Virus record (IMG/VR): IMGVR_UViG_3300032954_000021
Location: 1-51,864 of that record
Reading direction: 5' to 3' (one strand)
Length of the DNA: 51,864 bases
From: a virus
Lineage: Duplodnaviria; Caudoviricetes
Position numbers and translations under genes: made by a program. The notes beneath the pieces were generated by a model. The model worked only from the letters and a program-made list of their open reading frames with translations, was not told where the DNA came from and made no database searches. Positions within the stretch are counted from its first letter, which is position 1; the number at the start of each line of letters is the position of its first letter. This document shows, one piece after another, positions 25,822-44,894 of the stretch.

Positions 25822-26027
25822 TGAGGAGGGGCAGGCTGCGCCGCGGGAGCTGGCGCTGCTGCGGGAGCGGGAGCGGGCTCCGGAGCCGGCGCCGGCTTCC
25901 TCCCCTCGAACCAGGCGAAGAGCTTCTTACACTCTGCCTCGCCCCAGTGCGCAATATGCGCAGGAGCCATATCAGCGAGAGCTCCCTCCAGCTCCTCGAC
26001 TCGCTGTTCCAGTGTCTTCTCAGCCAT
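25818..26027 (-). CDS. 69-aa first late gene with Pro/Ala tail
   Basis: Strong AGGAGG RBS, downstream of the leftward promoter. Confidence 0.7.
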   Translation of the reverse strand: MAEKTLEQRVEELEGALADMAPAHIAHWGEAECKKLFAWFEGRKPAPAPEPAPAPAAAPAPAAQPAPPQ

Positions 26028-26107
26028 TCGTGTGTCCTCCTGAGTCCAGCCACGCCGGCGAGATTCTGAGAGAGGCTGCCGGCGTGGCTTACACTAGCCT
26101 CCCCGTG

Positions 26108-26137
26108 AGTATGGCGCGTTCCGATGGGGGCTGTCAA
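26108..26137 (-). promoter_or_regulatory. Leftward sigma70-type promoter for the late arm
   Basis: TTGACA-N18-CATACT on the minus strand. Confidence 0.6.
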
Positions 26138-26177
26138 CCCAGTCAACACATAGCTGCCCGTTTATAATGTGGACGCA

Positions 26178-26192
26178 TTATGCCGAACATAA
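26178..26192. promoter_or_regulatory. Palindromic motif TTATG-N5-CATAA (also at 11080, 34048, 44907)
   Basis: ttatgccgaacataa; four intergenic copies with shared flanks. Confidence 0.7.
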
Positions 26193-26291
26193 CGCGGCCG
26201 TGTTATTTCAGGTCGCGAGTTTGGCCAGATGCGTTCGGGCGCGCGCGATGGTCAGTGAAATTTGCCCCCTCCCCTGGCCGCGGGCCGACCC

Positions 26292-26433
26292 TGCCGGCTG
26301 GCACGGATCTTGCGAGCGGCGTGCTGCGTCGGTGTTGTAGTTGAGTATAACACTGCAGCGCCGCGCATGTTGCAGCGCCGCACGGGCAGCCGGCAATGCT
26401 GCAGCGCACAACAGGCATGCAAGCGGCGTGCCT
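26292..26433 (+). ncRNA. Candidate structured non-coding element
   Basis: Nested stems tgccggctg/cagccggca and gtgttgta/tataacac, then aggcatgc/gcgtgcct; several mismatches are G-U on the + strand. Confidence 0.35.
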
Positions 26434-26444
26434 GCCGCCGACGG

Positions 26445-26470
26445 CGAACATTACAAATTCTTAATGTTCG
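26445..26470. promoter_or_regulatory. 9-8-9 inverted repeat, operator-like
   Basis: cgaacatta-caaattct-taatgttcg, ending 5 nt before the -35 box. Confidence 0.55.
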
Positions 26471-26475
26471 GACGG

Positions 26476-26504
26476 TTGACGGCAGCCTCGCGGCGTGGTA
26501 CGTT
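26476..26504 (+). promoter_or_regulatory. Rightward early sigma70-type promoter
   Basis: TTGACG-N17-TACGTT with extended TG. Confidence 0.6.
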
Positions 26505-26548
26505 GCCCGGCAAGTCGGGCATGTCGCCCGGCGCAATGGAGACTCGCA

Positions 26549-27091
26549 ATGACAACTGAACGCAAGCCCGTGGTCACGGTCACTCGTGACGACTCGGGCA
26601 TCTCGATTCTGGTGAACGGGGCCGGACGGCCTCCGATCGCGGTGCGTTGGTCCGCTCTCTCGGATGCGGTTCGCAAGGCCGCATTCGGATATGGCATGGA
26701 GGTGCGGCTCACGCGCGCCGCTGCCATGACGCGCGACACGAAGTCGGGCAAGGCGGCGTCGCCTCTCGACAAGTACGAGGCGATCAAGCGGCTCGCGGAC
26801 CACTATTCCAGCGGGGCCGATAGCTGGACCATGGCCAGCTCGGGCGGCGGTGGCGGGCTGTCGGCTGACACGCGCGCTCTCATCGAGGCGCTGGTCGCGG
26901 CGCTCGGCCTCGACGCAGATGTGGCCGAGGAGCAGGTGCGCGGCATGACGACCGCTGAGCGCGATGCGCTGCGCGTAGATGCGGAGATCAAGCCCTACTT
27001 GGACCTGATCTACGAAGAGCGCGCGAAGGCGGCGGGCGCGGCGACTGGCGACCTGAAGGCGAAGCTGAAGGGGCTGAGCGCGAAGGTCTAA
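26549..27091 (+). CDS. Early protein, paralog of 33271..33927
   Basis: GGAG RBS; shares the W..GGG..L..AL and LR.D..IKP blocks with the 218-aa ORF. Confidence 0.8.
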   Translation: MTTERKPVVTVTRDDSGISILVNGAGRPPIAVRWSALSDAVRKAAFGYGMEVRLTRAAAMTRDTKSGKAASPLDKYEAIKRLADHYSSGADSWTMASSGGGGGLSADTRALIEALVAALGLDADVAEEQVRGMTTAERDALRVDAEIKPYLDLIYEERAKAAGAATGDLKAKLKGLSAKV

Positions 27092-27104
27092 GCCAGCGGA
27101 GCGA

Positions 27105-27128
27105 GGGGCGGGGACTGACACCCGCCCC
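27105..27128 (+). terminator. GC-rich hairpin after the first early gene
   Basis: ggggcggg-gactgaca-cccgcccc; no U-tract. Confidence 0.35.
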
Positions 27129-27452
27129 AACCTCTGACCACCACCACCAACCTCAACGACTGGCCACCAGCTAGCGGGGGGCCGGTTGGTCGTGGACGCA
27201 TTATGCGCTCAGTCGCCGTACCGTCAGACGCAAGCTCGTCGGCGGGCTTCTCAGAGGCGTGGGGTCAGGGGGATTATTATAATATTTTTTTATATAGAAG
27301 AACAAGAACGCGGACCTGAGCACGGGCACTCGGCCTCCCTGACGCACGGCATACTGAGCACTCGGCGACTGAGGCATAACGCGGACATGGGCGGGCGGCA
27401 CCCCCCTAGTCGGTGGCTAGTCGTTGGTGTTGGTGGTGGTGGACGGTGTTGG
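27127..27452. repeat. ~325-nt imperfect inverted repeat with AT-rich centre (candidate origin or structured RNA)
   Basis: ccaccaccaccaacctcaacgactggccacc vs ggtggctagtcgttggtgttggtggtggtgg; inner ctcagtcgccg/cggcgactgag; centre attattataatatttttttatatagaagaacaagaa. Confidence 0.85.
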
Positions 27453-27482
27453 TCGTGGTGGGCAGCCAGCATCGAACTGGGC

Positions 27483-27511
27483 TTGTTAGCTGCCGCCTAG
27501 CGTGCGATAAT
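27483..27511 (+). promoter_or_regulatory. sigma70-type promoter
   Basis: TTGTTA-N17-GATAAT with extended TG. Confidence 0.55.
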
Positions 27512-27529
27512 GCGCGCAATGCCGCCCAC

Positions 27530-27949
27530 ATGGCTACGCAGATCGAGGACAGCATGAGGATGGAACGCAGGAAACGGCCCGGCTCCAAGATGACTCGCGA
27601 GGACGTGATCGAAATACGCCGCCTCGCCGCCGATACAGACATGTCCTACCGAGAGATCGGCGAGATGATGAACCTCGGTACGGAGCAAGTCGGCCGCATC
27701 GTTCGCGGGGAGCAGTGGCGCGACATTGATCTGATCCCTTCGGATACTGAGGTCGAGGCGCGCATGAGGCGCGAGGCGCCGCCACTCCCGAGCGAGATCG
27801 AACGGTCGCAGGAGCGGCTGAAAGCGCTCCTCGCCGCTGAGCCGGAGCTCATTCAGACACAGGTTCAGGATAGTCCTGAGCCTCCCAACGCCGCCGGCGA
27901 CGCCGAGCGGCAGGAGACGAGCGATGACCACGACAGCAAAGCAGAATGA
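27530..27949 (+). CDS. HTH DNA-binding protein
   Basis: SKMTREDVIEIRRL...SYREIGEMMNLGTEQVGRIVRGEQW. Confidence 0.75.
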   Translation: MATQIEDSMRMERRKRPGSKMTREDVIEIRRLAADTDMSYREIGEMMNLGTEQVGRIVRGEQWRDIDLIPSDTEVEARMRREAPPLPSEIERSQERLKALLAAEPELIQTQVQDSPEPPNAAGDAERQETSDDHDSKAE

Positions 27950-28121
27950 GGCAGAATTCGAAGCCTTCTGGCGTGAGTGGCAGAAAGCCTTCGCGACGAG
28001 CGCGGAGTACAGATCACTCGCCCGAGCCGCTTGGTTCGCAGGGCGGCTGGCGCTCTGTGAGAAGATGGTCGCAGAGCGGCGGCAGCAGCGCGCCAGCGAG
28101 CTGGCTGAGCTCGGAGTCTGA
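27924..28121 (+). CDS. Hypothetical protein
   Basis: 65 aa, AGGAG RBS. Confidence 0.6.
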   Translation: MTTTAKQNEAEFEAFWREWQKAFATSAEYRSLARAAWFAGRLALCEKMVAERRQQRASELAELGV

Positions 28122-28124
28122 GCC

Positions 28125-28343
28125 ATGCCCCGCTCAGTCGTAATCCAGTCCGCCAATACTCTCTCCCCTTGGTATGTCGTCGGCTTCGACTTCGACCGAG
28201 GTTCCATAGTCTGGGATCAGCCCGGCACAACGCCGCCCAAGCACTTCCCCAGCGCGGCCCACGCCCGAGCCTTTCTGAAGAAAGCCAATCACTCGGGCTG
28301 CGGCGTGCTGATCCCTTTCGCCCCCAAGGTCACGCAGCCATGA
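28125..28343 (+). CDS. Hypothetical protein
   Basis: 72 aa in a tightly packed early cluster. Confidence 0.55.
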   Translation: MPRSVVIQSANTLSPWYVVGFDFDRGSIVWDQPGTTPPKHFPSAAHARAFLKKANHSGCGVLIPFAPKVTQP

Positions 28344-28561
28344 CGCTCTATCGAGTCTGTAATGCGGATGGCGCTCTCATCATGACTGCGCCCCTCTACA
28401 CTCTCACCCTGCTCTGGAATATCAAGGGCGCGGACCTCGAAGCGGCGACCGTCGCCCTCGACGACAAGTACAATTTCTACACCTACGTATTCGGGCAGTG
28501 CTATGCGCAGCGCATGCCGCTCGAGATCGAGAATCCTCTTCTCCGGAGACAAGCATCATGA
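28340..28561 (+). CDS. Hypothetical protein
   Basis: MTLYRVC start; ATGA overlaps at both ends. Confidence 0.55.
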   Translation: MTLYRVCNADGALIMTAPLYTLTLLWNIKGADLEAATVALDDKYNFYTYVFGQCYAQRMPLEIENPLLRRQAS

Positions 28562-28896
28562 AAGAGACTCCCGTTACCTACAGCAAACAGCCGCCCGCGA
28601 CCATTCGCGCACTGCGATACATTCGCCAGTACGCCAATCGCGGCCCGAGTCCGAAGCGGACTCGCTTCGGCAAGCAGAAGCGAGCGGCCCTCCAGGCCGC
28701 CGGCATTCGCGACACCGCGCACACGCGCTTGGGCGCTGAGGTTCTCAAGAACCTGTTCGCGCTGAGGATCAGCCTGCCGCCCCTCAAGCCGCCCGCTCCG
28801 CTGCCACCTACTGGCACAGAGCCGATCGAGGGCAAGCCGGCTTCTTCCGGAAGATCTGGCCGCGCGTCAAGCTCAAGAGAGCGACCTACGAGGTAG
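28558..28896 (+). CDS. Basic hypothetical protein
   Basis: MKETPV start, GGAG RBS. Confidence 0.5.
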   Translation: MKETPVTYSKQPPATIRALRYIRQYANRGPSPKRTRFGKQKRAALQAAGIRDTAHTRLGAEVLKNLFALRISLPPLKPPAPLPPTGTEPIEGKPASSGRSGRASSSRERPTR

Positions 28897-28900
28897 TCAA

Positions 28901-29086
28901 ATGAACGAGCTAGAGTCACTCGTCCGACGTAACGCGGAGTCCTGCGAGCAAGCGAAGCACCGCGCATGCCGCTGCCACTGCCGGGGCAAACTGCACGGCA
29001 AGCCGCACTCGGAAGAGTGGGTGCAGAAGGCGATGGCGGAGATTGCAGACGAACGATGGGCAAAGACAGAGGAGGCGGAGCTATGA
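28901..29086 (+). CDS. Small Cys/His-rich protein
   Basis: CEQA...CRCHCRGKLHG; GAGG RBS. Confidence 0.6.
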   Translation: MNELESLVRRNAESCEQAKHRACRCHCRGKLHGKPHSEEWVQKAMAEIADERWAKTEEAEL

Positions 29087-30570
29087 ACCTGCACGATCAA
29101 GTCATCGCAGCTGATCGACCTGATACGAGACAGTGGTCCGACTACCAGCAGGCCATCTTCGAAGCCGTCCGCTCTTCGGACAGCAACCTGCTCATCCAAG
29201 CCGTCGCCGGCTCGGGCAAGACCACCACGATCATCCAGGCCACCAACTACGCCGCCAGCCCCGCTCTGTTACTCGCCTTCAACAAGGACATTGCGCTGGA
29301 CATTCAGGCGAAGCTCGAAGTGGGCACAGCGAAGACGCTCAACGCTCTAGGCCACCGCCTCTGGATGCAGAACGCCGCCGGCGCAAAGCTCGACGCAGAC
29401 AAGCTCGAGAAGCTCGCCGTTCGCGAGATGCCCTCTGATCTCTACCGGAAGTTCGGCTTCATGCTCAAGCGGATCGTTGGGCAGGCGAAGGCTGCCGGCG
29501 TCGGCATCGGCGCTCAGGTCAATTCGAGCGACTTCGACCACTTTATCACGAACGGAGAGTGGGATATCGACGATGCAGACATCGCCTCGCTCGCCCATTA
29601 CGCCGCTCGCGTCTTCAATGCGTCCAGATCGGACCTCCAGACGTTCGACTTCGACGATCAGATCTACGGGCCGGTCTATCATGACTGGAGCTTTCCAGAG
29701 TTCGGCACCGTACTGGTGGACGAAGCGCAGGACCTCAACCGCATCCAGCATCTCTTCCTCCAGAAGCTGTCCGAGGCCGGCGCTCGCATGATCGCAGTCG
29801 GGGACCGGTACCAGGCCATCTACGCGTTCCGAGGTGCGCTCTCGAACTCTCTGGACCTTCTCGCAGACCACTTCAAGATGGAAGAGCTCCCGCTCTCGAT
29901 CAGCTATCGCTGTCCGCTGTCTGTCATAAGAGAGGCGCAGCAGATCGTCCCTCATATCGAGGCCCGTCCGGGCGCTCCCGAGGGTCTCGTCCAGTACCGC
30001 TCGGACAGCGCGCCGAACGAGGAGTACGGCGAGGACCCGAAGCTGTTCGAGAAGGACCACCTCGTTATCTGCCGCAATAATGCGCCGCTCTTCGCGGCAG
30101 TGATGCGGCACGTTCGGGAGCGATCGCCCTGCCGCGTCCGCAGCAACGCCCTCGACGGCCTCAGCTCATTCATCAAGCGCTTCCGCACGAGCGACGCGAG
30201 AGAGATGCTCCTGCGCCTCGACCGATGGCTCGTCAAGGAGACAGCGGCTGCCGAAGCCAAAGGCATGCCTTGGAAGGTGGCGGCGCTCGAGGACAAGGCC
30301 AACACGATCCGCAGCCTCGCCGAGGGCTTCACCCTCGTCGATGAGGTGCTGGCGGTCCTCCGACAGCTATCTGAAGGCAGGACCGGCCCCATCTTCAGCA
30401 CGATTCACAAGGCCAAAGGGCTCGAGGCCGACCACGTGTATTTCCTCCGCCCCGACCTCGTGCCAGCCTGGTTTATCAAAGAGCCGGCGGCGTTGCAGCA
30501 GGAGCAGAACCTGCGCTATGTCGCCATTACTCGGGCGAAACAGTCACTGACATATGGAGTACGAAGATGA
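29083..30570 (+). CDS. UvrD/Rep-like superfamily 1 helicase
   Basis: AVAGSGKTT, VDEAQD, VGDRYQAIY, STIHKAKGLE, YVAITRA. Confidence 0.93.
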   Translation: MNLHDQVIAADRPDTRQWSDYQQAIFEAVRSSDSNLLIQAVAGSGKTTTIIQATNYAASPALLLAFNKDIALDIQAKLEVGTAKTLNALGHRLWMQNAAGAKLDADKLEKLAVREMPSDLYRKFGFMLKRIVGQAKAAGVGIGAQVNSSDFDHFITNGEWDIDDADIASLAHYAARVFNASRSDLQTFDFDDQIYGPVYHDWSFPEFGTVLVDEAQDLNRIQHLFLQKLSEAGARMIAVGDRYQAIYAFRGALSNSLDLLADHFKMEELPLSISYRCPLSVIREAQQIVPHIEARPGAPEGLVQYRSDSAPNEEYGEDPKLFEKDHLVICRNNAPLFAAVMRHVRERSPCRVRSNALDGLSSFIKRFRTSDAREMLLRLDRWLVKETAAAEAKGMPWKVAALEDKANTIRSLAEGFTLVDEVLAVLRQLSEGRTGPIFSTIHKAKGLEADHVYFLRPDLVPAWFIKEPAALQQEQNLRYVAITRAKQSLTYGVRR

Positions 30571-30938
30571 AAGAGCCGAAACAGATTCCCAGCGTTCTCG
30601 TCGATCTCGAGTGGGGCGTGGCCCGGATCAACTTCGAGCAGGGCGCAATGGATGAAGATGGAGACCTGCGCCAGTGGTACACGAAGGAAGAAGGAGAGCA
30701 GCAGCTGTACGTCCGAATGGCCAGCATCGACTTCTTCGCCCCGGCGCAGGAAGGCATGGCGGCGCAGAGTCTCTCTATCGGTCGCACTGGTATTGTTGCA
30801 CTGAAAGAAGCACTGAGCAATATTCACTACGAAGAGGAGTGGCCGTACCAGAAGAAGCTACAAGAGATAAAGGACGCCGCGCAGGCTCCGAAGTCAGTTA
30901 CGTCAGCGCCTATTACTGACGACGACATTCCCTTCTGA
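30567..30938 (+). CDS. Hypothetical protein with SSB-like DDDIPF tail
   Basis: Ends TDDDIPF. Confidence 0.65.
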   Translation: MKEPKQIPSVLVDLEWGVARINFEQGAMDEDGDLRQWYTKEEGEQQLYVRMASIDFFAPAQEGMAAQSLSIGRTGIVALKEALSNIHYEEEWPYQKKLQEIKDAAQAPKSVTSAPITDDDIPF

Positions 30939-30949
30939 AAGGAAGCACC

Positions 30950-31237
30950 ATGAGACTCACAATCCTCGCCCCTCTCGTCCTGAGCGGCTGCTCGGCCCTC
31001 GCCCCAGCCGCCCTCGACTTCGAGGCTCAGCACAACTCCCACCTGCTCCAGCATGACTGGATGACAGACTGGTCACGCCGACAGGCCGGCTACGACACTA
31101 TCGGCGCGGCGGCTAAGTGGGAGCCCTCCCGCTCTACCTACGTGAAGGTGGGGGAGTACTACTCGCCCGAGTGCCTAGACGGGCGGCATGAGGTGTTCGA
31201 GGCGACGTTCGGATATGAAGTGAGGTTGAAGCCATGA
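30950..31237 (+). CDS. Putative lipoprotein
   Basis: MRLTILAPLVLSGC lipobox. Confidence 0.6.
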   Translation: MRLTILAPLVLSGCSALAPAALDFEAQHNSHLLQHDWMTDWSRRQAGYDTIGAAAKWEPSRSTYVKVGEYYSPECLDGRHEVFEATFGYEVRLKP

Positions 31238-31602
31238 GCGATGCTAACAGTTCCTCAAATGAGCAGCTCCCTGAATTTACCTACGAGCAAATCGTAGAGG
31301 GGAAGCGCCCGCCAGTGCTTTCGGGGCCGTACATTCCGGCCTATCTCGCAAAGGCCGAAATCAAGCGGCTGGAGGACTGTATTCGCGGGCTATCCGACCA
31401 TGCAATGAAGTCGGCCCACGAGATCGGCATCATGCTCCAAGCGCTCAAGACGATTGCAGCGAACGACCGCATGACCGCTCCGCATCCAATCGGCCCCGCG
31501 ATGGGCGCGGGCATCAGTCAGGGCCTTGAATGGAACGCGAAGATCGCCAAGCAGGCGTTGTCTGCTGTCGAAGCCGCACCACGGGGCGAGGAGGCAACAT
31601 GA
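31234..31602 (+). CDS. Hypothetical protein
   Basis: 122 aa, ATGA overlaps. Confidence 0.6.
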   Translation: MSDANSSSNEQLPEFTYEQIVEGKRPPVLSGPYIPAYLAKAEIKRLEDCIRGLSDHAMKSAHEIGIMLQALKTIAANDRMTAPHPIGPAMGAGISQGLEWNAKIAKQALSAVEAAPRGEEAT

Positions 31603-32108
31603 GTGCGCACGACAAACCCTCAAATCAGCGCCTCGATGCTCAGATGCAGGTGCTAGCGATAGCCGAAGGACTCGGCATCCCCGATCCCGCATCGTGGACG
31701 TGGCTTGAGCCGGGACAGTTGAAACTCATCTGTCAGGCCATTGCGAAGCAGGCGGCGCAATCCGAGCGGCTGCGCGCGGCGCTGGTGAAGATCGGAACCA
31801 TGTCATGCGTCATGGGCTACGACAGGGGGCACGCCGGCATTGATGCTGTAGTGCGAGAGGCTCTTGGCGAAGCCGCACCACGGGACGAGACTGCGCCAGC
31901 CGATGAGACCAACCGTGACAAGGCCCTGCGAGGCGAGGTCGTGGTCATTAGCGAGGCGCGGCTGCGAGAGATGCGCGAGCAGGCGATTCGCTTTGAAGGG
32001 ATCGGTGACGGTACATATCACTGGCACTGGGCGGCGGCGCTTAATGAACTGATCGCCCTTCGCGAGCCGGTGCAACAAGTCGAGACGACAGCGGAGCATC
32101 AATCATGA
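31599..32108 (+). CDS. Hypothetical protein
   Basis: Start MSAHDK, GAGGAGG RBS. Confidence 0.6.
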   Translation: MSAHDKPSNQRLDAQMQVLAIAEGLGIPDPASWTWLEPGQLKLICQAIAKQAAQSERLRAALVKIGTMSCVMGYDRGHAGIDAVVREALGEAAPRDETAPADETNRDKALRGEVVVISEARLREMREQAIRFEGIGDGTYHWHWAAALNELIALREPVQQVETTAEHQS

Positions 32109-32653
32109 CTGAAGCGCAAGGTACATTCGCATGCCCGATCTGCGGCGTAGAGTCCCCGCACTCGCATTCCGAAGCCACGCAAGCGGCTTATCGAGAGGAG
32201 CAAATCAGCGGGCGGTTCTACGGTGAGGGCGACGGCTGGATTAGGACTGAGCTGCACAGGCCGAAAGAGCGGGGCTGGTATCTGTGCCTCGGAGTTGAGA
32301 TCGATGCCGATCAGTTCGGAAAACCGAAAGACATTTGGGAGCGCCACGACCGTTGGTCGCAACTCTCGTGGTTCAAGTGGGTGCGTCAAGGCGGCGCCCG
32401 CGGGCACTTGGAAAGCGACATTCCCGAGGTTCTGTACTACGACCCGTTCTACGGCGGCTGGCAGCTTCGCAACCTGCTCGGAAACGCCGTCTACTCCGGC
32501 GCTGAGAATCGCCACCGAGTGCAAGCGGAGCCGAAGTACTGGCGTGAGTTGCCTCCGTTCATCAAGAGAGGCACCAGTGAGATGGGCCGAGAAACAGCGA
32601 ATGACCCTGATCGCGGAAAGACTTTCGTCACAGGGTTGGATCAACCGAAGTGA
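32105..32653 (+). CDS. Hypothetical Trp-rich protein
   Basis: CPICG N-terminus; GWI...RP...YWRELP pattern reminiscent of DUF551-type phage domains. Confidence 0.6.
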   Translation: MTEAQGTFACPICGVESPHSHSEATQAAYREEQISGRFYGEGDGWIRTELHRPKERGWYLCLGVEIDADQFGKPKDIWERHDRWSQLSWFKWVRQGGARGHLESDIPEVLYYDPFYGGWQLRNLLGNAVYSGAENRHRVQAEPKYWRELPPFIKRGTSEMGRETANDPDRGKTFVTGLDQPK

Positions 32654-32807
32654 TCTGATGGACGCATTTGGCATCTCGACTCAGCAGGCGTCGAAAGACC
32701 TACAGACGTTTCTACGGCTGAATCCTCGGGCGATGCGCTATAACCTGAGTGCAAAGCGGTACGAAGCAGCACCACCGGAGAACGGGAAAGCGGAGCCTCG
32801 CTCATGA
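32577..32807 (+). CDS. Stand-alone winged-HTH resembling the N-terminal domain of CapW/BrxR WYL regulators
   Basis: GTG start with GAGG RBS; RWAEKQRMTLIAERL..QGWINRSDLMDAFGISTQQASKDLQTF...YNLSAKRY. Confidence 0.7.
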   Translation: MRWAEKQRMTLIAERLSSQGWINRSDLMDAFGISTQQASKDLQTFLRLNPRAMRYNLSAKRYEAAPPENGKAEPRS

Positions 32808-33178
32808 ACATCATCATCCAGACCATCGATCACTCTCAACAGCGCTACGACACCTGCGGAGACTGGCGGTTCGAGTCCAACGCCCTCGTCATCCGAGTCA
32901 GCTCTCTGAAGAACTGGCGCATGGAAGCCCTCATCGCCATCCACGAGCTGATCGAGGCAGTCCTCTGCCGAGGCTTCAACGTCGACCAGGGCGACGTGGA
33001 TCAGTTCGACCTCCAGTTCTCCGGCCCCGGGGAGCCCGGCGACCAGTTCGCCGCTCCCTACTACATGCAGCACCAGATCGCGACCGGCATCGAGCGCCTG
33101 CTCGCCGCCTACCTCATGGTGGACTGGCTCGACTACGAGAAGCGGGTGAATGGATTGGGGCAGACAGCAAAAGACTGA
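32804..33178 (+). CDS. Phage hypothetical protein
   Basis: QRYDTCGDW, IAIHELIE, EPGD...APYYMQH motifs. Confidence 0.65.
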   Translation: MNIIIQTIDHSQQRYDTCGDWRFESNALVIRVSSLKNWRMEALIAIHELIEAVLCRGFNVDQGDVDQFDLQFSGPGEPGDQFAAPYYMQHQIATGIERLLAAYLMVDWLDYEKRVNGLGQTAKD

Positions 33179-33179
33179 G

Positions 33180-33208
33180 TGGACGCGCGATTCGCGTCCG
33201 CGTATGAT
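33180..33208 (+). promoter_or_regulatory. sigma70-type promoter with palindromic spacer
   Basis: TGGACG-N17-TATGAT; ggacgcg..cgcgtcc dyad overlapping the -35 box and spacer. Confidence 0.6.
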
Positions 33209-33270
33209 CGCAGCTTCGGAATCGCGGGCCGCCGACTCAAAGGGTCCGCACACTGATAGGAGAAGAGAGA

Positions 33271-33927
33271 ATGAACGCAACAGCAGAACAGGCAGCCGGC
33301 GAAGCCGCCGCAGCTGCCCCCGCTCGCAAGAAGGCAGAGGTCGAGATCGTGGAGATGACCGATGGACGCAAGGTGTCGTTCTCGGGCAAGTCGAAGGTCT
33401 CGAAGGAGTTCCTGGTGAATGGGAAGCCCTTCGATGAGCTGACTCCCGAGGAGCAGGCCAAGGCGCACGTCGGCCATTCTGCCGTCCGCTTCGACTTCCG
33501 CAACGGCACGACTCGCACGTATCCGCTGAACACCGCGCTCGCCCTGCGCTTCGCAGGCCACGGTGCTCTGCAGAAGTACGGCGATGAGCTGGCCGGCGAG
33601 GACGCACCCGATCTCGATGACTGGGCTGCGACCACGGATCGGCTGCACGAGCGGCTGTCTGGCGGGGAGTGGACGAAGGCCCGCGTAGGCGGCGGCATGG
33701 CAGGCACCAGCGTGCTGCTCCAGGCCCTGATGGAGTTCACCGGGCGTACTGCCGACGAGGTCCGCGAGCACATCAAGGACTGGACGCCGCAGGACAAGCA
33801 GGCCATGCGCAACGATCCTGACATCAAGCCGATCGTCGAGCGCATCGAGAAGGAGAAGGCCGAGAAGGCTTCGAAGAACGTCGATACCGGCGCTCTGAAG
33901 GCCTCTCTAAAGAGTCTCGCCGCATAG
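33271..33927 (+). CDS. Early protein, paralog of 26549..27091
   Basis: 218 aa with its own promoter, AGGAG RBS and downstream hairpin. Confidence 0.8.
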   Translation: MNATAEQAAGEAAAAAPARKKAEVEIVEMTDGRKVSFSGKSKVSKEFLVNGKPFDELTPEEQAKAHVGHSAVRFDFRNGTTRTYPLNTALALRFAGHGALQKYGDELAGEDAPDLDDWAATTDRLHERLSGGEWTKARVGGGMAGTSVLLQALMEFTGRTADEVREHIKDWTPQDKQAMRNDPDIKPIVERIEKEKAEKASKNVDTGALKASLKSLAA

Positions 33928-33963
33928 CGGAGAGTCCTCGGATCGCGAGTCCCGAGGAGGAGT

Positions 33964-33981
33964 GGGGGCCGAAAGGCCCCC
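33964..33981 (+). terminator. GAAA-tetraloop hairpin
   Basis: gggggcc-gaaa-ggccccc followed by tctct. Confidence 0.5.
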
Positions 33982-34034
33982 TCTCTACTAGTAAGAGGAC
34001 CGGAAGGCGGGCGGCAGGCAGCAGCATACTGCCA

Positions 34035-34063
34035 TTGCACGTTCGCATTATGTCGGGCATAAT
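34035..34063 (+). promoter_or_regulatory. sigma70-type promoter whose -10 box lies inside the TTATG-N5-CATAA motif
   Basis: TTGCAC-N17-CATAAT; palindrome at 34048-34062. Confidence 0.65.
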
Positions 34064-34148
34064 ACCCACACGAATTGAAACCAGCTGCATGTCTCGCGCG
34101 GCGAGCGGATTACCGGCACTAGCAGCTCTAACCTAACAGGAGACAAGA

Positions 34149-34433
34149 ATGGCCCAGATCCCCAAGCAGATCATCCCGCACAAGCTCTACAAAGTCAATG
34201 CGAGCGCCCTCGGCCTCGGCACCGAAGGAGATGTCGAGGTCGTGCTGGAGCGCGACTGCGACTGGCTCAAGAACGAGGACGGTTCGCATGGCCGCGTGAC
34301 GCACTGGCTCGTCCGGCAGGTCACAATCCGCTCGGGTACCTTCCCGAACGCCGACTACTCCTTCGGAGAGCCGATCCGCGTCGCAGCGAGCGAACTCCGC
34401 CCCATGATGCGGACCATAAAGGCAGCCGCGTAA
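34149..34433 (+). CDS. Hypothetical protein
   Basis: 94 aa, AGGAG RBS. Confidence 0.65.
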   Translation: MAQIPKQIIPHKLYKVNASALGLGTEGDVEVVLERDCDWLKNEDGSHGRVTHWLVRQVTIRSGTFPNADYSFGEPIRVAASELRPMMRTIKAAA

Positions 34434-34798
34434 TGTCTGAGGGCAGCCTCGAGCGCCTCCAGCGCATTCTCGTCCGAGCCCGGCATCGCGCCGGCCTCGA
34501 GGCTGCCGCTCGCCGCGCACTGAAGCAGAAGCGGAAGGCAAAGACCGTTGCAGAGGACTACGCCGACCGGCTGGCAGAGAAAGCTCTGTATCGCCGGCTG
34601 CTCGAAGACCTCCGTCTGGATGGAATGCGCTTCCAGTTCTACTTCACCCGCATCTCGAAAGACGTTGATCTTACCGAGCTCCGTGCTTGGATAGATGCAA
34701 AGATAGCAGAGGAGACGAAGCGTGAGATGGATAAAAAAGCTGATCGACCGCTGGTTCGGATGGGAGACGCTGCCAGGTCCGAAGCCGGACCCGCGTAA
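34433..34798 (+). CDS. Hypothetical protein
   Basis: 121 aa, TAATG coupling. Confidence 0.55.
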   Translation: MSEGSLERLQRILVRARHRAGLEAAARRALKQKRKAKTVAEDYADRLAEKALYRRLLEDLRLDGMRFQFYFTRISKDVDLTELRAWIDAKIAEETKREMDKKADRPLVRMGDAARSEAGPA

Positions 34799-34847
34799 CT
34801 GGTCCGACGCTTACATGACCGAGTATCGGAAGGCGACGAAGGCCTAG
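34722..34847 (+). CDS. 41-aa peptide MRWIKKLIDRWFGWETLP...
   Basis: GTG start with GAGGAG RBS; fills the gap to 34849. Confidence 0.45.
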   Translation: MRWIKKLIDRWFGWETLPGPKPDPRNWSDAYMTEYRKATKA

Positions 34848-34848
34848 C

Positions 34849-35055
34849 GTGCCACGCCCTCCCGAGATAATCCGTCCTGTGTCGCTGCATACCTCGGTCC
34901 CCGAGGACTTGGCGACCTGGCTCACCGTCCACCTCTGGAGCAAGGCAGAGGGGAGAGTGCCGCATGGTGCGCGGCAGGCACTCATCTTGCAGCTACTGAG
35001 AGAGTATCGCGCCCGATTCGAGACGAGAGAGGTGTCCAGTGATTCAGAGTCCTGA
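34849..35055 (+). CDS. Small putative DNA-binding (RHH-like) protein
   Basis: MPRPPEIIRPVSLHTSVPEDL...EGRVPHGA...ILQLLREY. Confidence 0.55.
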   Translation: MPRPPEIIRPVSLHTSVPEDLATWLTVHLWSKAEGRVPHGARQALILQLLREYRARFETREVSSDSES

Positions 35056-35254
35056 GTTGCAAATGAAGATCGCCCATTGGCGGGACAAGCAGTCCCGCGG
35101 CGAAATGTCACCAGAGGACTGGATCGAAGCGATGACTGCCCTCCGTGAGCATCGCACCGGCGCCCAGGCCGCCTCTGCCGCCTCGAAGGCCCGCAAGGCG
35201 CCCGTCGATACGTCCGCGCTGAAGGACAGCCTCCGCGCGCTCAAGAAGATCTGA
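35039..35254 (+). CDS. Hypothetical protein with shared C-terminal tag
   Basis: Ends VDTSALKDSLRALKKI. Confidence 0.65.
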   Translation: MIQSPELQMKIAHWRDKQSRGEMSPEDWIEAMTALREHRTGAQAASAASKARKAPVDTSALKDSLRALKKI

Positions 35255-35284
35255 CCTGAAACGAAAGTCCGAAGGGAGCTACCT

Positions 35285-35476
35285 GTGGACTCAGACTCAC
35301 AGTACACGCCGATCTACCAAGTCGAATGCGCTGAGTGCGGTATAGCGCCGGTCGTCGGCATTCGCGCTCCCTCTGGAGTCATCATCTGTTCCGCGCTGTG
35401 CGGCCCGCACTTCTTCGGCGATCGGCTGATGCTGGAGCCGGAGCGGTGGAATCAGCAACAGGAGGCGACCGAATGA
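35285..35476 (+). CDS. Small Zn-finger-like protein
   Basis: CAECG...CGPH. Confidence 0.55.
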   Translation: MDSDSQYTPIYQVECAECGIAPVVGIRAPSGVIICSALCGPHFFGDRLMLEPERWNQQQEATE

Positions 35477-35859
35477 CAGACCGTCGCCCTACTATAGGCA
35501 GAAAGCGAAGTCGCTTTACAGGCAAGGTAGTTCGAGAACATATTCGGATTGCAGAGGAAGTGCTTGGACGCGCCCTACCGGCAGGTGCTGTCGTTCATCA
35601 CGTTGACTGCAATCCAGCAAATAATACGAGAAGCAATCTTGTAATCTGTCCGAACGAGGCTTATCACAAGCTGTTGCATAAGAGAACAGAAGCTATTGCT
35701 GCTACAGGCAACCCAAACTGCAGAAAATGTGTATTCTGTAAGCAGTGGGACTTCCCAGAGAACATGAAGGAACGAGGCAGCAGAGACTTTCACCACGCAC
35801 GCTGTGCAGCAGCTGCAGTACTGGAGAGATACTATGCTAAAAAATCCACCGTTTCCTGA
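35473..35859 (+). CDS. HNH homing endonuclease
   Basis: EHIRIAEEVLGR.L...VVHHVDCNPANNTRSNLVIC...YHKLLH; low GC. Confidence 0.85.
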   Translation: MTDRRPTIGRKRSRFTGKVVREHIRIAEEVLGRALPAGAVVHHVDCNPANNTRSNLVICPNEAYHKLLHKRTEAIAATGNPNCRKCVFCKQWDFPENMKERGSRDFHHARCAAAAVLERYYAKKSTVS

Positions 35860-36742
35860 AGTATTTGACAGTTCGATGATGGGAGCGTTGAAGAGCTGTC
35901 CTCAATTGTTCAGGAAAGTCTACATCGACAACTGGAAGTCTCGGGGCGAGAAGGTCGATCTGCACGCCGGCAAGGCCTATGCACACGGGCTCGAGATCGC
36001 CCGGCGCGCTTACTTCGAGCAGGGAGTCATGAAAGAGAAGGCGGAGGCGATGGGCCTCGCCGCCCTCCTCGAAGCCTATGGCGACTACGAATGTCCGGCA
36101 GACAATCCGAAGAGTCGGGAGCGCATGGCTGGCGCCTTCGAGTACGCCATGCAGGCCTATCCGCTCACCATGCAGACCGGCTTCCCGATCCAGCTCGCCG
36201 ACCAGAAGCGCGCCATAGAGGTCGGCTTCGTCCACCCGCTCGGTATCGACCATCCGGAGACAGGGCAGCCCCTCCTCTACTCCGGCCGGGCAGACATGAT
36301 AATCCAGTACGCCGGCGACCAATACGGCCTGGATGACAAGACCACGAAGCAGCTCGGGCCGACGTGGAGTCGGCAGTGGGAATTGCGGTCGCAGTTCATC
36401 GGCTACACGTGGGGCTTCCGCACCAGCGGCTATCGCATCGCCGGCTTCGTCGTCCGCGGCGTCGCGATCCTCAAGACCATGTACAAGACCGAGGAAGCGA
36501 TCGTTAACTTCTCCGAGTTCGAAGTGAATCGCTGGTACGGGGAGCTGCTCGAATGGCTGTCCGACGCGATCAGGTCGTGGAAGACTGGCCGGTGGCGATA
36601 CAATCTCGACCACTCCTGCACAGAGTACGGTGGCTGTGGATTCAGAGAAGTCTGTAAAATGGAGGACGAACAGCCCTGGCTGGAGCAGTTCTTCGAGCGG
36701 CGGAAGTGGAATCCGGTGACTCGCGAAGAGGAGAAGCTTTGA
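35834..36742 (+). CDS. PD-(D/E)XK Cas4-like exonuclease
   Basis: GRADM...DDKTT, QFIGY; LKSCP plus C-terminal CxxxxxCxxxxxC Fe-S ligands. Confidence 0.85.
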   Translation: MLKNPPFPEVFDSSMMGALKSCPQLFRKVYIDNWKSRGEKVDLHAGKAYAHGLEIARRAYFEQGVMKEKAEAMGLAALLEAYGDYECPADNPKSRERMAGAFEYAMQAYPLTMQTGFPIQLADQKRAIEVGFVHPLGIDHPETGQPLLYSGRADMIIQYAGDQYGLDDKTTKQLGPTWSRQWELRSQFIGYTWGFRTSGYRIAGFVVRGVAILKTMYKTEEAIVNFSEFEVNRWYGELLEWLSDAIRSWKTGRWRYNLDHSCTEYGGCGFREVCKMEDEQPWLEQFFERRKWNPVTREEEKL

Positions 36743-36951
36743 GTCGAAAGCCCACAGCACCGCCCGTCCTCGACCCCGAGGGCGCACGCCGCTTCGCCAC
36801 CCGCAGAGGACAGAAGGTCGGCGAGGGCTGTAAGCACTTCCTCGGCAATTGCAACTGTGACCCTCCCCACCACCTCCGCTGCGATTACATGTACAGAGGA
36901 GAGAGGTGCAGGCGAGGCGACGGACACTTCGGACCGCACAAGTTCAAATGA
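36739..36951 (+). CDS. Small Cys-rich protein
   Basis: TTG start overlapping the upstream stop; GGAG RBS. Confidence 0.45.
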   Translation: MSRKPTAPPVLDPEGARRFATRRGQKVGEGCKHFLGNCNCDPPHHLRCDYMYRGERCRRGDGHFGPHKFK

Positions 36952-37376
36952 AAGTCTGGATCAAGTTCCCGATAGAACACTCCAAGGTCTGGGAGATTAC
37001 TCGCCCAGAGCAGGACAGCTATCGTGGCTTCTGGATTCACTCCCGCGCGAAGGTCTGCCCGCATTGCCTCCAGATCTGGGCAACCATGACCACAGAGAAA
37101 GGCGGACCTTGGTCCATTGAGGGCCAGTCCTGTGCCGAGTGCAACGAGAGCCACTATTGCGTAGCCGGCTCGCTGCTGGAAGACCGCAGCTCGCAGACGT
37201 TCGACCTCGACCTCATTCGCTATCTGCCGCTCGAATTGCAGCAGAGAGAATTCGACCTACACGTTAGAGCATTACAGAAGGACTCGCAGAATGAACAGCC
37301 CCCTCCCATTGCATCAGAGCCACTCCTCGACAGCATCCTCGAGCCAGACAGCAGCGCCGCCATCCTCGGAGCCTAG
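36948..37376 (+). CDS. Zn-finger hypothetical protein
   Basis: CPHCLQIWA...CAEC...GSLL. Confidence 0.6.
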   Translation: MKVWIKFPIEHSKVWEITRPEQDSYRGFWIHSRAKVCPHCLQIWATMTTEKGGPWSIEGQSCAECNESHYCVAGSLLEDRSSQTFDLDLIRYLPLELQQREFDLHVRALQKDSQNEQPPPIASEPLLDSILEPDSSAAILGA

Positions 37377-38223
37377 CTTACTGCCGGGCGTCAATATCCT
37401 TCTGGAGGGTCCTGCCGGCACCGGCAAGACCTATCAGATCGGCAGCCTCGTCGAGACTGGCGTAGAGGTATTCTTCCTCGGTCTCGAGGCCGGCATCGAG
37501 TCGCTGGTCGGATACTTCTCCGATCCGCCTCGTAGCTGCGAGCCGCCGCCCAATCTGCACTGGCACACTCTGCAGTTAGCGATGCCGGGCGGCTTTGGGA
37601 AGATGGCAGAGAACGCGAAGCTGATCGCCAACAGCACCTATGCCGCGCTCTGCAAGGTCCAGGACTTCACTCGCGCTCAGAATAACCCGTTCGAGCGCAT
37701 GCTCTCAGTCATGAACAACTTCCGCGACCAGCGCACTGGCAAGGAATATGGGCCGGTCGATAGCTGGGGTCCAGACCGCTGCATCGTTATCGACGGTCTC
37801 ACAGGTCTGGGGGACTTCGCCATGGCGATGCAAGTCGGCATGCGCCCCGTGAAGGACAAGCCCGATTACATGGTCTCTCAGGACACTATTTCCCGCTTCA
37901 TCAAGTACTGCTGCGACGGGTGCAAGTGTCACTTCGTCCTGATCGCGCACATCGAGCGGGAGGTAGATGAGGCGCAGGGCGGATCGAAGATTTACCCGAG
38001 CGCACCGGGCCAGAAGCTCGGCCCCAAGCTCCCAAGCATGTTCTCCGACACCATTCTGACAGTCCGGAGGGGCGCAGAGTGGTCCTGGAGCACCGGCGAT
38101 CCGATGGCTGATCTGAAGACGCGCAACCTAAGCGTGAGCGAAAAGATCGAGCCCGGCTTCGCCCAGATCATAAGTAAGTGGAAGTCGCGCGGCGGGCGGC
38201 TTTCACCGAACGTTCGCGTCTAA
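37291..38223 (+). CDS. AAA-family (Sak4-like) ATPase/recombinase
   Basis: GPAGTGKT, IVIDGLT, VLIAH; located between the exonuclease and the SSB-like gene. Confidence 0.8.
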   Translation: MNSPLPLHQSHSSTASSSQTAAPPSSEPSLLPGVNILLEGPAGTGKTYQIGSLVETGVEVFFLGLEAGIESLVGYFSDPPRSCEPPPNLHWHTLQLAMPGGFGKMAENAKLIANSTYAALCKVQDFTRAQNNPFERMLSVMNNFRDQRTGKEYGPVDSWGPDRCIVIDGLTGLGDFAMAMQVGMRPVKDKPDYMVSQDTISRFIKYCCDGCKCHFVLIAHIEREVDEAQGGSKIYPSAPGQKLGPKLPSMFSDTILTVRRGAEWSWSTGDPMADLKTRNLSVSEKIEPGFAQIISKWKSRGGRLSPNVRV

Positions 38224-38250
38224 GCCCGCCACCACAAAACGGAGATTATC

Positions 38251-38736
38251 ATGAACGATACTGCAGCCGGCTTCAACGTCGGCAATTTCCTGAACGCAAC
38301 TCTGACCGAGCCGAACACACGCCGCCCTCCCATTCCTGCGGGTACGGCCGTCATCGGCATCTTCGGCAACGTGCCGGCGGAGCCCCGCCGTGTACAGGGC
38401 AAGGACGACCCTTCGAAGGTCTATTTCTTCCTCGAGATTCCTGTCGAGGTAGACCTCAATCAGAACCCGGCGCTGAAGGAGCACGTCGGGCAGGAGAAGG
38501 TCAACCTGCGCTACTCCCTCTCGCTCGACTTCACGCCGACCGGGCAGCTCGACATGTCGAAGGGGAAGAACGTGGGCCTGCGGCAGCTGCGCGAGGCGCT
38601 CGATCTGAACAAGCCGGGCGACACGTTCAGCTTTGCCATGGTACCGGGCCGGCCGGTGCTGTGCAAGATCAAGAACCGCTCCGGCGAAGGCGATGAGGTC
38701 TACGACGAAGTAGGCTCGATCGCTCGACCCCGCTGA
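38251..38736 (+). CDS. Putative ssDNA-binding protein (DUF669-like)
   Basis: PIPAG...KNVGLRQLREAL...YDEV; synteny after the AAA gene. Confidence 0.6.
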   Translation: MNDTAAGFNVGNFLNATLTEPNTRRPPIPAGTAVIGIFGNVPAEPRRVQGKDDPSKVYFFLEIPVEVDLNQNPALKEHVGQEKVNLRYSLSLDFTPTGQLDMSKGKNVGLRQLREALDLNKPGDTFSFAMVPGRPVLCKIKNRSGEGDEVYDEVGSIARPR

Positions 38737-38755
38737 TAGAAGAAGGGAGACTCAC

Positions 38756-38998
38756 ATGTTCACTCCTAATACGATCGCCGATCGCCTACGCTCGCTCGCC
38801 GAGCGGCTTGACGCGCTCCAGGACGATTACGATAAGGTCGAGCCCAGAATCGACGTAATCGACCTGGACGATGAGGTCGATATTGTTGCAGACAGTATCC
38901 AGAACCTGGGACACGAGATCACGCAGGCTCTCGAAGACCCCGAGGTCGAGGACGAGGACGAGGAGAGCGAGGAGGAGGAAGAGCCCAAAGCCGAATGA
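38756..38998 (+). CDS. Highly acidic 80-aa protein
   Basis: About 30 of 80 residues are D/E; GGAG RBS. Confidence 0.7.
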   Translation: MFTPNTIADRLRSLAERLDALQDDYDKVEPRIDVIDLDDEVDIVADSIQNLGHEITQALEDPEVEDEDEESEEEEEPKAE

Positions 38999-39007
38999 CC
39001 CCCTCTC

Positions 39008-39037
39008 GAGGGGGAGCCCATGTCCCCCTCTCTTTTT
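39008..39037 (+). terminator. Intrinsic terminator
   Basis: gaggggga-gcccatg-tccccctc followed by tcttttt. Confidence 0.6.
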
Positions 39038-39058
39038 CCTCAGACTCGGAGACTCGCA

Positions 39059-40375
39059 ATGCAACTCCACCTTCTCTCCGCTGACGAGATCACGGTTAAG
39101 AAGAATCGTCAGCGCCGCGAACTCGATCAGACGAAGATATTCGAGCTCGCCGCTTCGATCGGCCAAGTCGGCCTGATCCATCCTATCGTAGTTCGTTCGG
39201 TTGACGGCGAGTATACTCTCGTCGCCGGCGAACGCCGCCTCAAAGCTCTCGAGCAGCTATGGTTCCTCGGCTCCGAGGTAACCTACTCCGGGAAGGTCAT
39301 ACCCGAGGGCCAGGTCCCCTGCTCCTTCCTCGGAGAGATCGACCCGATTGATGCAGAAGAGATCGAGCTCGAAGAGAACATTCGCAGGGAAGATCTGAAC
39401 TGGAAGGAGCGCGCCGACGCCGTTGCGCGCCTCGCCGCCCTTCGGACTGCGCAGGCGAAGCGCGCCAACCTGCCCGCGCCGAGCGTCGCCGATATCGCCG
39501 AAGAGGTGAGCGGCCACCGCGAGGGCGACTACCAAGGTGACGTCCGGAAGGACATTATCCTTGGCAACGCTCTGAAAGATCCAGAGGCGGCCGCCGCCCT
39601 CGACGGCGCTACCAATCGCAACGACGCTTTCAAGAGGTTACGCCGTCATGAAGAATCCAAGAGAAATGCCGCTCTGGGGGCCTCGCTCGTACTTACCTCG
39701 GAAATGCACACTCTGCGAAAGGGCAACTGCATTCCTCTTATGCAGGAAATGCCAGCGGAGACTTTCGACGTTATTCTCTGCGACCCGCCGTACGGGGTCG
39801 GCGCAGATGAATTTTCTGACAGCGGCGGACGAACCGCTGGTGGTCATTTCTATAGCGACTCCTATGAAGAGTGGAAGCCTCTCGCCACCAGTCTTGCCGG
39901 CGAGTCCTATCGCCTCGCTAAGGGCCAAGCCCACGCATATGTATTCTGCGATATTGACCGCTTTGGAGAGCTCAAAGCGCTCTTCGCGCAGGCGGGTTGG
40001 TCGGTCTTCCGAACGCCGCTCGTCTGGGTCAAGCCAGGCGGCGTGCGCGCCCCGTGGCCTGAGATGGGACCTCAACGAAAGTACGAGATTATTCTCTTCG
40101 CAGTCAAAGGAAAGCGACCAGTAACGAGGCTCTACGGCGATGTGCTCACCTACCCGTCCGATCCTAACCTTGGCCACCCAGCGCAGAAACCTGTGGCGCT
40201 TCTCAGCGACTTACTACAGAGATCAGTCCGGCCGGGTGACACAGTGCTCGATCCGTTTTGTGGAACTGGTTCGACCTTGGTCGCCGCCCACCAGCACAAG
40301 TGCAGAGCGACAGGGATCGAGCTGAATGAGGCAGCTTACGGAATATCGCTTGTTAGAGTGAGGGAGCTCAAATGA
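39059..40375 (+). CDS. ParB/Srx N-terminal domain fused to N4/N6 DNA methyltransferase
   Basis: GLIHPIVV..LVAGERRLKA..EENIRRE; DPPY; HPAQKP; VLDPFCGTGST. Confidence 0.9.
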   Translation: MQLHLLSADEITVKKNRQRRELDQTKIFELAASIGQVGLIHPIVVRSVDGEYTLVAGERRLKALEQLWFLGSEVTYSGKVIPEGQVPCSFLGEIDPIDAEEIELEENIRREDLNWKERADAVARLAALRTAQAKRANLPAPSVADIAEEVSGHREGDYQGDVRKDIILGNALKDPEAAAALDGATNRNDAFKRLRRHEESKRNAALGASLVLTSEMHTLRKGNCIPLMQEMPAETFDVILCDPPYGVGADEFSDSGGRTAGGHFYSDSYEEWKPLATSLAGESYRLAKGQAHAYVFCDIDRFGELKALFAQAGWSVFRTPLVWVKPGGVRAPWPEMGPQRKYEIILFAVKGKRPVTRLYGDVLTYPSDPNLGHPAQKPVALLSDLLQRSVRPGDTVLDPFCGTGSTLVAAHQHKCRATGIELNEAAYGISLVRVRELK

Positions 40376-40524
40376 ACAAGCTGATCCTGTTCAATTGCTG
40401 GATCATGTTCAACTACCTCTGCACGGCGTGCTGGTGGGCCCTGCATAAGAAGTGGCCGGACATGCTCTACTGGCTCTCAGCACTCGCGATCACAGCAACA
40501 GTCACATTCGGGTACAAAAGATGA
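40372..40524 (+). CDS. 50-aa hydrophobic membrane peptide
   Basis: MNKLILFNCWIMFNYLCTACWWAL...YWLSALAITATVTFGYKR; ATGA overlaps at both ends. Confidence 0.6.
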   Translation: MNKLILFNCWIMFNYLCTACWWALHKKWPDMLYWLSALAITATVTFGYKR

Positions 40525-43474: not shown

Positions 43475-43665
43475 TGGAACACGATTTCAGTATAAAGATG
43501 AGCTGGTGCCGTCGATGCGGCCGGCCTCTGTATGAGATAGTAGATAACAATATTCCTGAATGTGATGGACTACCAGGTGTAGTACATGCTCGCTTCCTAA
43601 AAGCTGAGGCCGATATGGAGAAGATATTCGGTCCTATTATAGATGAAATTCTTGGATTGCACTAA
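43474..43665 (+). CDS. Small Zn-ribbon protein
   Basis: WCRRCG; TGATG coupling to pol. Confidence 0.55.
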   Translation: MEHDFSIKMSWCRRCGRPLYEIVDNNIPECDGLPGVVHARFLKAEADMEKIFGPIIDEILGLH

Positions 43666-43668
43666 GCT

Positions 43669-44892: not shown

Positions 44893-44894
44893 AT

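Follow-up and report, generated by a model that had tools for sequence, protein, structure and literature searches.

We identified a rod-like imperfect inverted repeat of ~330 bases, with a T-rich centre, in an untranslated gap of the genome of an uncultured phage (positions 27137–27465, hereafter the rod). Our preferred reading, which we hold tentatively and stop short of calling probable, is that the rod is a single-copy, cis-acting site at the level of DNA, most likely a replication origin or the unwinding module of one. The rod has the signature of a family-wide cis element: it is unique, contains the least stable duplex, lies behind promoters, and keeps its complementarity while its sequence is replaced.

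The window, which is the whole stretch of DNA analysed, is an IMG/VR record of 51,864 bases, rated 100% complete, with a GC content of 0.52–0.65 per kb. GC3-guided ORF calling and family scans placed the structural genes, including those for the portal, the large terminase and a podophage fibre-like protein, on the − strand (roughly 3–26,030 and 45,648–51,802). The + strand block (26,549–45,462) encodes an HTH protein, a ParB_N-methylase and an HNH protein, together with replication genes for a UvrD-like helicase, an exonuclease, a Sak4-like protein, a family A DNA polymerase (PolA) and a DUF3987 protein. The rod stands at the head of this block, in the gap between gene A (26549–27091), the first + strand gene, and the HTH gene (27530–27949). 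A 1137-aa ORF at 3–3413 on the − strand runs off the start of the record; the record is therefore cut inside a gene, and its ends reflect a permuted or broken assembly and not physical ends. The rod and its surroundings comprise the following features.

26169–26202, no strand assigned: mini-hairpin of 34 nt with both half-sites of the rod mid-stem, among the divergent promoters that precede gene A
26549–27091, + strand: gene A, a GC3-rich ORF for a 180-aa protein, with homologs beside the rod in all relatives
27105–27128, + strand: small GC hairpin of 8 bp, just past the gene A stop codon, from folds
27137–27271, no strand assigned: left (5′) arm, with a G-poor outer part of CCA-type low complexity and an inner part of unique-sequence stems
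27192–27206, + strand: left-arm 15-mer GTGGACGCATTATGC, with an identical copy at 26169–26183
27272–27311, + strand: AT-rich core with a T7 run (27285–27291) at the rod apex, a candidate unwinding element
27312–27465, no strand assigned: right (3′) arm, with inner stems followed by C-poor TGG/GTT-type low complexity (27423–27462)
27483–27511, + strand: sigma70-like promoter TTGTTA-17-GATAAT with a TG extension, reading away from the rod
27530–27949, + strand: 139-aa helix-turn-helix protein, the first gene after the rod, from translation

The initial annotation had placed an inverted repeat at 27127–27452, and the arms, the inner stem and the comparison of folds with shuffled sequences all confirm that it is real. 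Ungapped, the arms (27115–27206 and 27374–27465) extend over 92 nt with 71% complementarity. The ~80% proposed for outer arms with CCA/TGG runs is matched by a gapped alignment (71/90, 79%), and another gapped alignment pairs 114/148. Two pairs of sub-arms, 27134–27151/27448–27465 (89%) and 27137–27151/27423–27437 (93%), carry the CCA/TGG runs, and the left outer arm contains at most 2 G between 27118 and 27157. The inner stem (ctcagtcgccg/cggcgactgag, 27208–27218 and 27363–27373) is exact. The region 27095–27480 folds into a single rod capped by the AT-rich tract. Its z-score is −9.07 for ssDNA, −12.79 for RNA of the + strand and −7.86 for RNA of the − strand; none of 100 shuffles was as stable in any of the three cases. 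A sliding scan of the whole window found no second inverted repeat of this strength, and a search of the genome with the rod itself returned only matches of arm against arm. A miniature mobile element (MITE) was rejected, as the rod is single-copy within the phage genome and occupies a fixed syntenic place in all relatives.

The claim of an AT-rich tract holds equally well. With 32/40 A/T, 27272–27311 is the richest 40-mer among the 51,864 bases (the runner-up has 28/40), and no 50-bp duplex in the genome is less stable than 27259–27308 (−57.8 kcal/mol, compared to a mean of −76.4 and a standard deviation of 4.6). Inverted repeats thus flank the most easily melted segment, as in palindromic, AT-centred origins, and the core is where supercoiling would open the genome first. 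We also considered the T-run of the core as an intrinsic terminator and rejected it, since the run lies at the apex of the rod and a terminator-like hairpin accompanies it inconsistently across relatives: a local hairpin of −7 kcal/mol or stronger ends within 4 nt of the T-run in 6 of 13 elements (L007, L011, L012, L013, L014 and L025), the window not being one of them.

The rod is conserved in place. Relatives were sought with gene A and the helicase in viral and metagenome contigs, which yielded 12 distinct complete elements (the window and 11 relatives). In addition, L013 is cut by the contig end, while L021 stops inside gene A and is uninformative; several loci are duplicates of one another. 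The rod occurs at the same place in all 12 complete elements and in the truncated L013. The order is the same in 13/13 informative loci: gene A (180–200 aa), a small GC hairpin, the left arm, and the T-run core, which is on the gene A strand in every case. Where the sequence continues past the core, the right arm follows and then a + strand sigma70-like promoter. As ssDNA, the 12 complete elements fold with z-scores from −5.3 to −14.5, and 0/30 shuffles were as stable for each. In four of five 11–15 kb loci from relatives, no large inverted repeat other than the rod occurs; in the fifth, the short-armed L022 falls below threshold.

The sequence of the arms is replaced while their pairing is kept. 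The arms differ completely between relatives, being of CCA-, CAA- or CCT-type low complexity. For example, the gene A proteins of L004 and L015 are 91% identical, their element DNA is 60% identical, and the arm type is CAA/CCA in one and CCT in the other. In 11 of the 12 elements, the left arm contains a run of at least 34 nt with no more than 2 G, and the right arm a run of at least 27 nt with no more than 2 C. The pooled arms show a period of 3, with autocorrelations of 0.52, 0.52 and 0.50 at offsets 3, 6 and 9, compared to 0.31–0.42 elsewhere. We know of no model that explains this combination of period 3 with G-free 5′ and C-free 3′ arms. A putative Chi-like reading of the GT-rich arm was also considered. 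By-eye comparison of the close relatives L008 and L009 reveals new complementary segments in both arms simultaneously. The arms probably co-evolve by slippage and arm-to-arm templated correction.

Such gains also bear on the view that the pairing has no function, the arms being a microsatellite-like quasi-palindrome that persists by slippage and template switching around a T-rich core that is itself functional, for example as an upstream promoter element. The period-3 low complexity of the arms, the simultaneous gains in L008 and L009, and the commonness of transversion-type mismatches (96/161) are consistent with this view, as are the similar T-runs that serve as terminator-plus-promoter spacers in unrelated AT-rich phages. 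If mutational bias could keep the arms complementary without selection, this would also count against the origin reading. However, the repeat has been kept in place in 12/12 elements, as well as in the distant subfamily with its gene A identity of only ~20%, and long palindromes are generally hazardous to replicons, as known from the SbcCD literature. We therefore regard functionless pairing as decidedly improbable.

The distant subfamily was found by scanning viral contigs for the T-run motif. The 36 loci obtained comprise two known relatives, one new distant locus (L039) and, for the rest, AT-rich phages; in the latter, which are unrelated, the T-run motif follows a terminator hairpin, no gene A homolog occurs in any, and only L034 has a moderate repeat score. 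L039 (GC 0.53) encodes two distant gene A homologs (hhalign E 1.5e-5 over 141 columns), and gene A is ~20% identical in this subfamily. The gene A paralogs are convergent beside the element (188–655 on the + strand and 798–1289 on the − strand of L039; also in L066–L068). In L039 and two relatives, an A/T-run is flanked by inverted arms, forming a shorter version of the rod, with ssDNA fold z-scores of approximately −2.2, −6.7 and −5.5 (two of the three pass). Examined by eye, these arms consist of short, iteron-like repeats at roughly helical spacing. A promoter scan of L066 and L068 showed that in these two loci the rod fills the spacer between strong divergent promoters, both reading away from it (scores of 11 and 10 of 12 in L066, and of 12 and 10 of 12 in L068). 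The arms end ~46 nt upstream of each −35 by a by-eye estimate.

Promoters adjoin the rod throughout. A looser in-house script placed a + strand promoter candidate at the equivalent position in all 12 complete elements; a stricter scan confirmed it in the window and L005 and did not list it in L025, where it gave a weak internal candidate that overlaps the T-run. Upstream of gene A, the exact recurrence of the 15-mer GTGGACGCATTATGC is accompanied by that of its partner 10-mer CATAACGCGG, located at 27375–27384 and 26188–26197. Since both recur, the mini-hairpin at 26169–26202 resembles the rod in its mid-stem. A promoter-like site on the − strand (26206–26177) overlaps this mini-hairpin, which may be a putative shared protein-binding site that links the divergent promoter region to the rod.

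These observations bear most directly on an alternative in which the rod is a transcription-control site, with the arms as arrays bound by a regulator (gene A protein or the HTH protein) that wraps or loops DNA around a bent T-tract and switches one or more promoters. The constant adjacency of a promoter is in accord with this, as are the recurrence of the mid-stem half-sites in the divergent promoter region between gene A and the late genes, the presence in L006, L014 and L015 of a −35-adjacent palindrome and a −35-proximal motif shared with a second promoter, and, in the distant subfamily, the location between two divergent promoters with arms ending ~46 nt upstream of the −35s (by eye) and short repeats at about helical spacing (judged by eye). 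Against it, the complementarity spans the whole 100–450 nt, extending beyond the repeats, and a regulator needs no such pairing; moreover, low-complexity arms that swap fully between phages with 91%-identical neighbouring proteins are ill-suited to specific recognition. We consider a control site unlikely.

Several elements near these promoters are recorded in their own right. A palindrome of the type AGACATC-n-GATGTCT lies directly upstream of the −35 of the post-rod promoter in L006 (3717–3745), with equivalents in L011, L014, L015 and L020, and is probably an operator bound by a regulator of the phage. In L006, L014 and L015, a second, upstream promoter shares the −35-proximal motif. Just upstream of gene A in the window, the stretches 26354–26408 and 26446–26469 contain three direct copies of TGCAGCGCC, the third differing at its last base, and a palindrome with 8-bp arms, GAACATTA...TAATGTTC. 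These repeats look iteron- or operator-like and are a candidate regulatory or origin-related site.

On balance, the rod is better read as a DNA site than as an RNA gene. The long structured ncRNA suggested in the initial annotation is disfavoured by the lack of an Rfam match, of a positionally conserved internal promoter, and of a bias of G·U over A·C. A search of Rfam (E ≤ 1, positions 26000–29000) gave only a chance-level match to a fungal sRNA, outside the rod. Among 12 elements, no internal promoter is conserved in position; weak internal candidates (8–9 of 12) overlap the core in 6/12, because its AT-rich composition predicts them, and the sole conserved promoter is outside the rod and reads away. 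The pooled alignment of the arms of 11 elements (excluding the later-found L025), with arm limits hand-chosen from the folds, contains 671 matches, 71 gap columns and 161 mismatches (30 G·T, 35 A·C and 96 other; p = 0.62). Wobble pairing in an RNA of one strand is therefore not favoured, and the lack of a strand bias is as expected if both strands matter equally. In the window alone, there are 8 G·T and 2 A·C mismatches, which speaks for RNA.

The RNA need not be a gene product in its own right: the hairpin could form in transcripts reading through from gene A, where cleavage by RNase III or a block to exonucleases would separate or retro-regulate the gene A message. No T-tract accompanies the small hairpin behind gene A, either in the window or in most relatives, so that read-through transcription of the rod from the gene A promoter is possible, which also counts against the origin reading. 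Furthermore, the + strand RNA of the window folds strongly (−228.8 kcal/mol, z −12.8), in 8 of 11 elements the + strand gives the more stable RNA fold (strongly so in the window, −245.6 vs −207.9), and a natural variant, 27142 C to T in run X2, would by our reading give a T·G pair on the + strand. Yet the − strand folds better in 3/11 elements, the mismatches show no preference for G·U over A·C, no Rfam family matches, and the flanking promoters of the distant subfamily read away from the rod. In L005 and L025, the equivalent small hairpin is followed by a T-tract, forming a canonical intrinsic terminator before the rod. A role in read-through messages is thus quite improbable in our estimation.

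The rod is also not expected to extrude as a cruciform under supercoiling, as had been envisaged for it. The two hairpins of 27137–27465 have energies of −94.1 and −83.7 kcal/mol, compared to a duplex nearest-neighbour energy of −504, and hence regain only about a third of the duplex energy. The cost of extrusion is approximately +326 kcal/mol. Relaxing 329 bp in a 51.9-kb domain releases ~230 kcal/mol at a sigma of −0.06 and 108 at −0.03; the estimate mixes two parameter sets, but the gap is large. In addition, the arms are ~79% complementary and do not form a near-perfect palindrome. A supercoil-extruded cruciform was therefore rejected, and, since the cost exceeds the supercoil energy, the arms pair only once the strands have been separated.

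The part of the initial annotation that is supported in outline is the symmetric, origin-like element at the level of DNA with an unwinding core. It is single-copy, contains the least stable duplex, is conserved in 12/12 elements, and lies in a terminator-to-promoter gap or, in distant relatives, between divergent promoters. The cruciform, the ncRNA and priming without a phage primase are not supported. As to the last, the DUF3987 ORF (43669–44892) has a PHROG match labelled DNA primase (E 9e-82; Pfam gives DUF3987 only), and the absence of a phage primase therefore cannot be claimed.

For the origin reading, we infer the following mechanism, in all of its steps, from the anatomy observed. The oligo(dT)-rich core would be the easiest melting point in the genome. 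It sits immediately behind a single strong promoter or, in the distant subfamily, in the space separating two divergent ones, and transcription departing from these would underwind the DNA there. Melting would begin at the core, and a helicase would widen the bubble. The separated strands, each able to fold on itself because the arms are complementary, would keep the bubble open and provide folded single-stranded DNA at which loading or priming could occur. Hairpin formation would thus be a consequence of unwinding and not of supercoil-driven extrusion. The sequence of the arms would be free to change, with only complementarity, period-3 low complexity and the G-poor 5′ and C-poor 3′ composition being kept.

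A more elaborate version describes a new type of phage origin with unconstrained arm sequence and an oriented oligo(dT) core for unwinding or priming. The triplet-periodic, G-free (5′) and C-free (3′) arms would fold as twin hairpins only after opening by the helicase, may be single-strand tracks that set the register for a protein binding three nucleotides per subunit (the Sak4-like RecA-fold protein or an initiator ATPase), and would be kept complementary by arm-to-arm correction. We regard this full version as rather unlikely.

Some results do not favour the origin reading. GC skew gives no support, with the cumulative minimum near 19–20 kb and the rod near a local maximum at ~28 kb. No DnaA boxes were found near the rod, and the genome as a whole has two one-mismatch matches (7.5 and 12.9 kb), fewer than expected by chance. 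The arms in the window's subfamily show no conserved repeat to which an initiator might bind. An initiator protein was likewise not identified among the products, which counts against the reading. The protein encoded by gene A has no Pfam or PHROG match. Neither Foldseek nor VIA-align matched its predicted model (pLDDT 80.6) to a PDB structure (best Z 5.0, from common helical arrangements), and the sole viral matches in the fold search are uncharacterised proteins. A protein atlas returns only viral hypothetical clusters, none of ~250 metagenomic homologs is named, and tblastn against the phage collection gave no match. The 139-aa HTH protein has weak Sigma70_r4/TnsD and HNH-associated HTH matches, and homologous HTH ORFs occur downstream of the rod in L004, L005, L015, L018 and L025.

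Among known systems, single-strand initiation signals, the single-strand origins of RCR plasmids and Frpo of the F plasmid are imperfect rod-like hairpins of 150–330 nt that act only as ssDNA. The rod resembles them in shape and size; these sites are strand-specific, whereas the mismatches of the rod have no strand bias. We know of no single-stranded stage for this phage. The rod also resembles AT-centred palindromic sites of the origin type, with a function that is predicted accordingly. In HSV-1, the boxes of OriS are inverted on either side of an AT-rich spacer, and unwinding lets it adopt a hairpin (OriS*) (PMC12543377). The likeness of the rod to OriS and OriL includes the inverted arms, the AT-rich spacer, a hairpin after limited unwinding, and a helicase in the replication set (PMC12543377). 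In contrast, the HSV arms are described there as short, sequence-conserved boxes for a known origin-binding helicase around an (AT)n tract (PMC12543377). Those of the phage are hypervariable, of low complexity and 50–200 nt long, and its core is a T-run of fixed orientation.

The origin of Ceduovirus (c2-type phages of Lactococcus) lies in a non-coding region between the divergent early and late modules, by the early promoters (PMC7150918). A gap of this kind is also the position of the rod in the distant subfamily. In the window, by contrast, a single gene, gene A, separates the rod from the divergent region. The passages on the c2 origin give no long rod-like palindrome, and the likeness rests on position, not sequence (PMC7150918).

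The injection stop signal (iss) region of T5 provides a further comparison, and with it the possibility that the rod serves the mechanics of the genome, as a physical end, a packaging site, or an entry pause that separates the first-entering gene from the rest. The rod is unique, non-coding, repeat-rich and conserved, and it follows the first + strand gene. The iss region is likewise a conserved untranslated region rich in inverted repeats after the first-expressed genes (10.1101/866236). As described there, however, it lies in the terminal repeat and has sequence-conserved repeats and eight DnaA boxes (10.1101/866236); the arms of the rod are not conserved in sequence and no DnaA box is nearby, and an injection stop signal of the T5 type was rejected on these grounds. 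Long contigs of three relatives run through the rod at different permutations, and consistent contig ends at the core occur in none of the contig sets. About 9 kb separate the rod from the large terminase gene, whose nearest matches include terminases of Mu-like phages. A role in genome mechanics is, in our view, as improbable as functionless pairing.

No known counterpart of the rod was found in Rfam or, at the level of DNA and of gene A, in the phage collection, and a full-text literature search on phage inverted-repeat origins returned no description of it. The DNA of 26400–28400 has no similarity to cultured phages. The nearest cultured helicase relatives (the Pseudomonas NP1 group, ~36%) and a terminase relative (an Alcaligenes phage, 36%) show no synteny and lack any comparable inverted repeat. 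To our knowledge, origins of uncultured phages are almost never recognisable from sequence. If the rod is an origin, it would provide a sequence-independent way to spot origins in metagenomic phages, and it would be a natural long palindrome that is tolerated and renewed, not purged.

The five sequencing runs that carry the phage are wetland DNA metagenomes, analysed as assembled contigs; no RNA run is listed among the carriers. In the four that were compared, the phage is present with a few variants, and unitig breaks fall inside the repeat.

Other observations concern the relatives and the rest of the window. The element contains six GGCGCC palindromic hexamers in L008 (3570–3860) and L009 (330–620), three of them within ATAACAGGCGCC direct repeats by hand count, and tandem GGCTCG hexamers adjoin the small hairpin. 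In a group of AT-rich phage contigs (L030, L033, L037, L047, L048, L052, L054, L055, L057–L059 and L064, most of ~40–70 kb), the T-run motif, T8-A-T9, stands between a short CCCACA/TGTGGG hairpin on its 5′ side and a −35-like hexamer, TTGATT, on its 3′ side; this arrangement is a recurrent, predicted terminator-plus-promoter junction. A second AT-rich region of the window, at 43.5–43.7 kb, appears to be coding, with a small zinc-finger-like ORF by a by-eye reading. The family A DNA polymerase (40928–43474) carries an N-terminal domain of the uracil-DNA-glycosylase superfamily (UDG-like).
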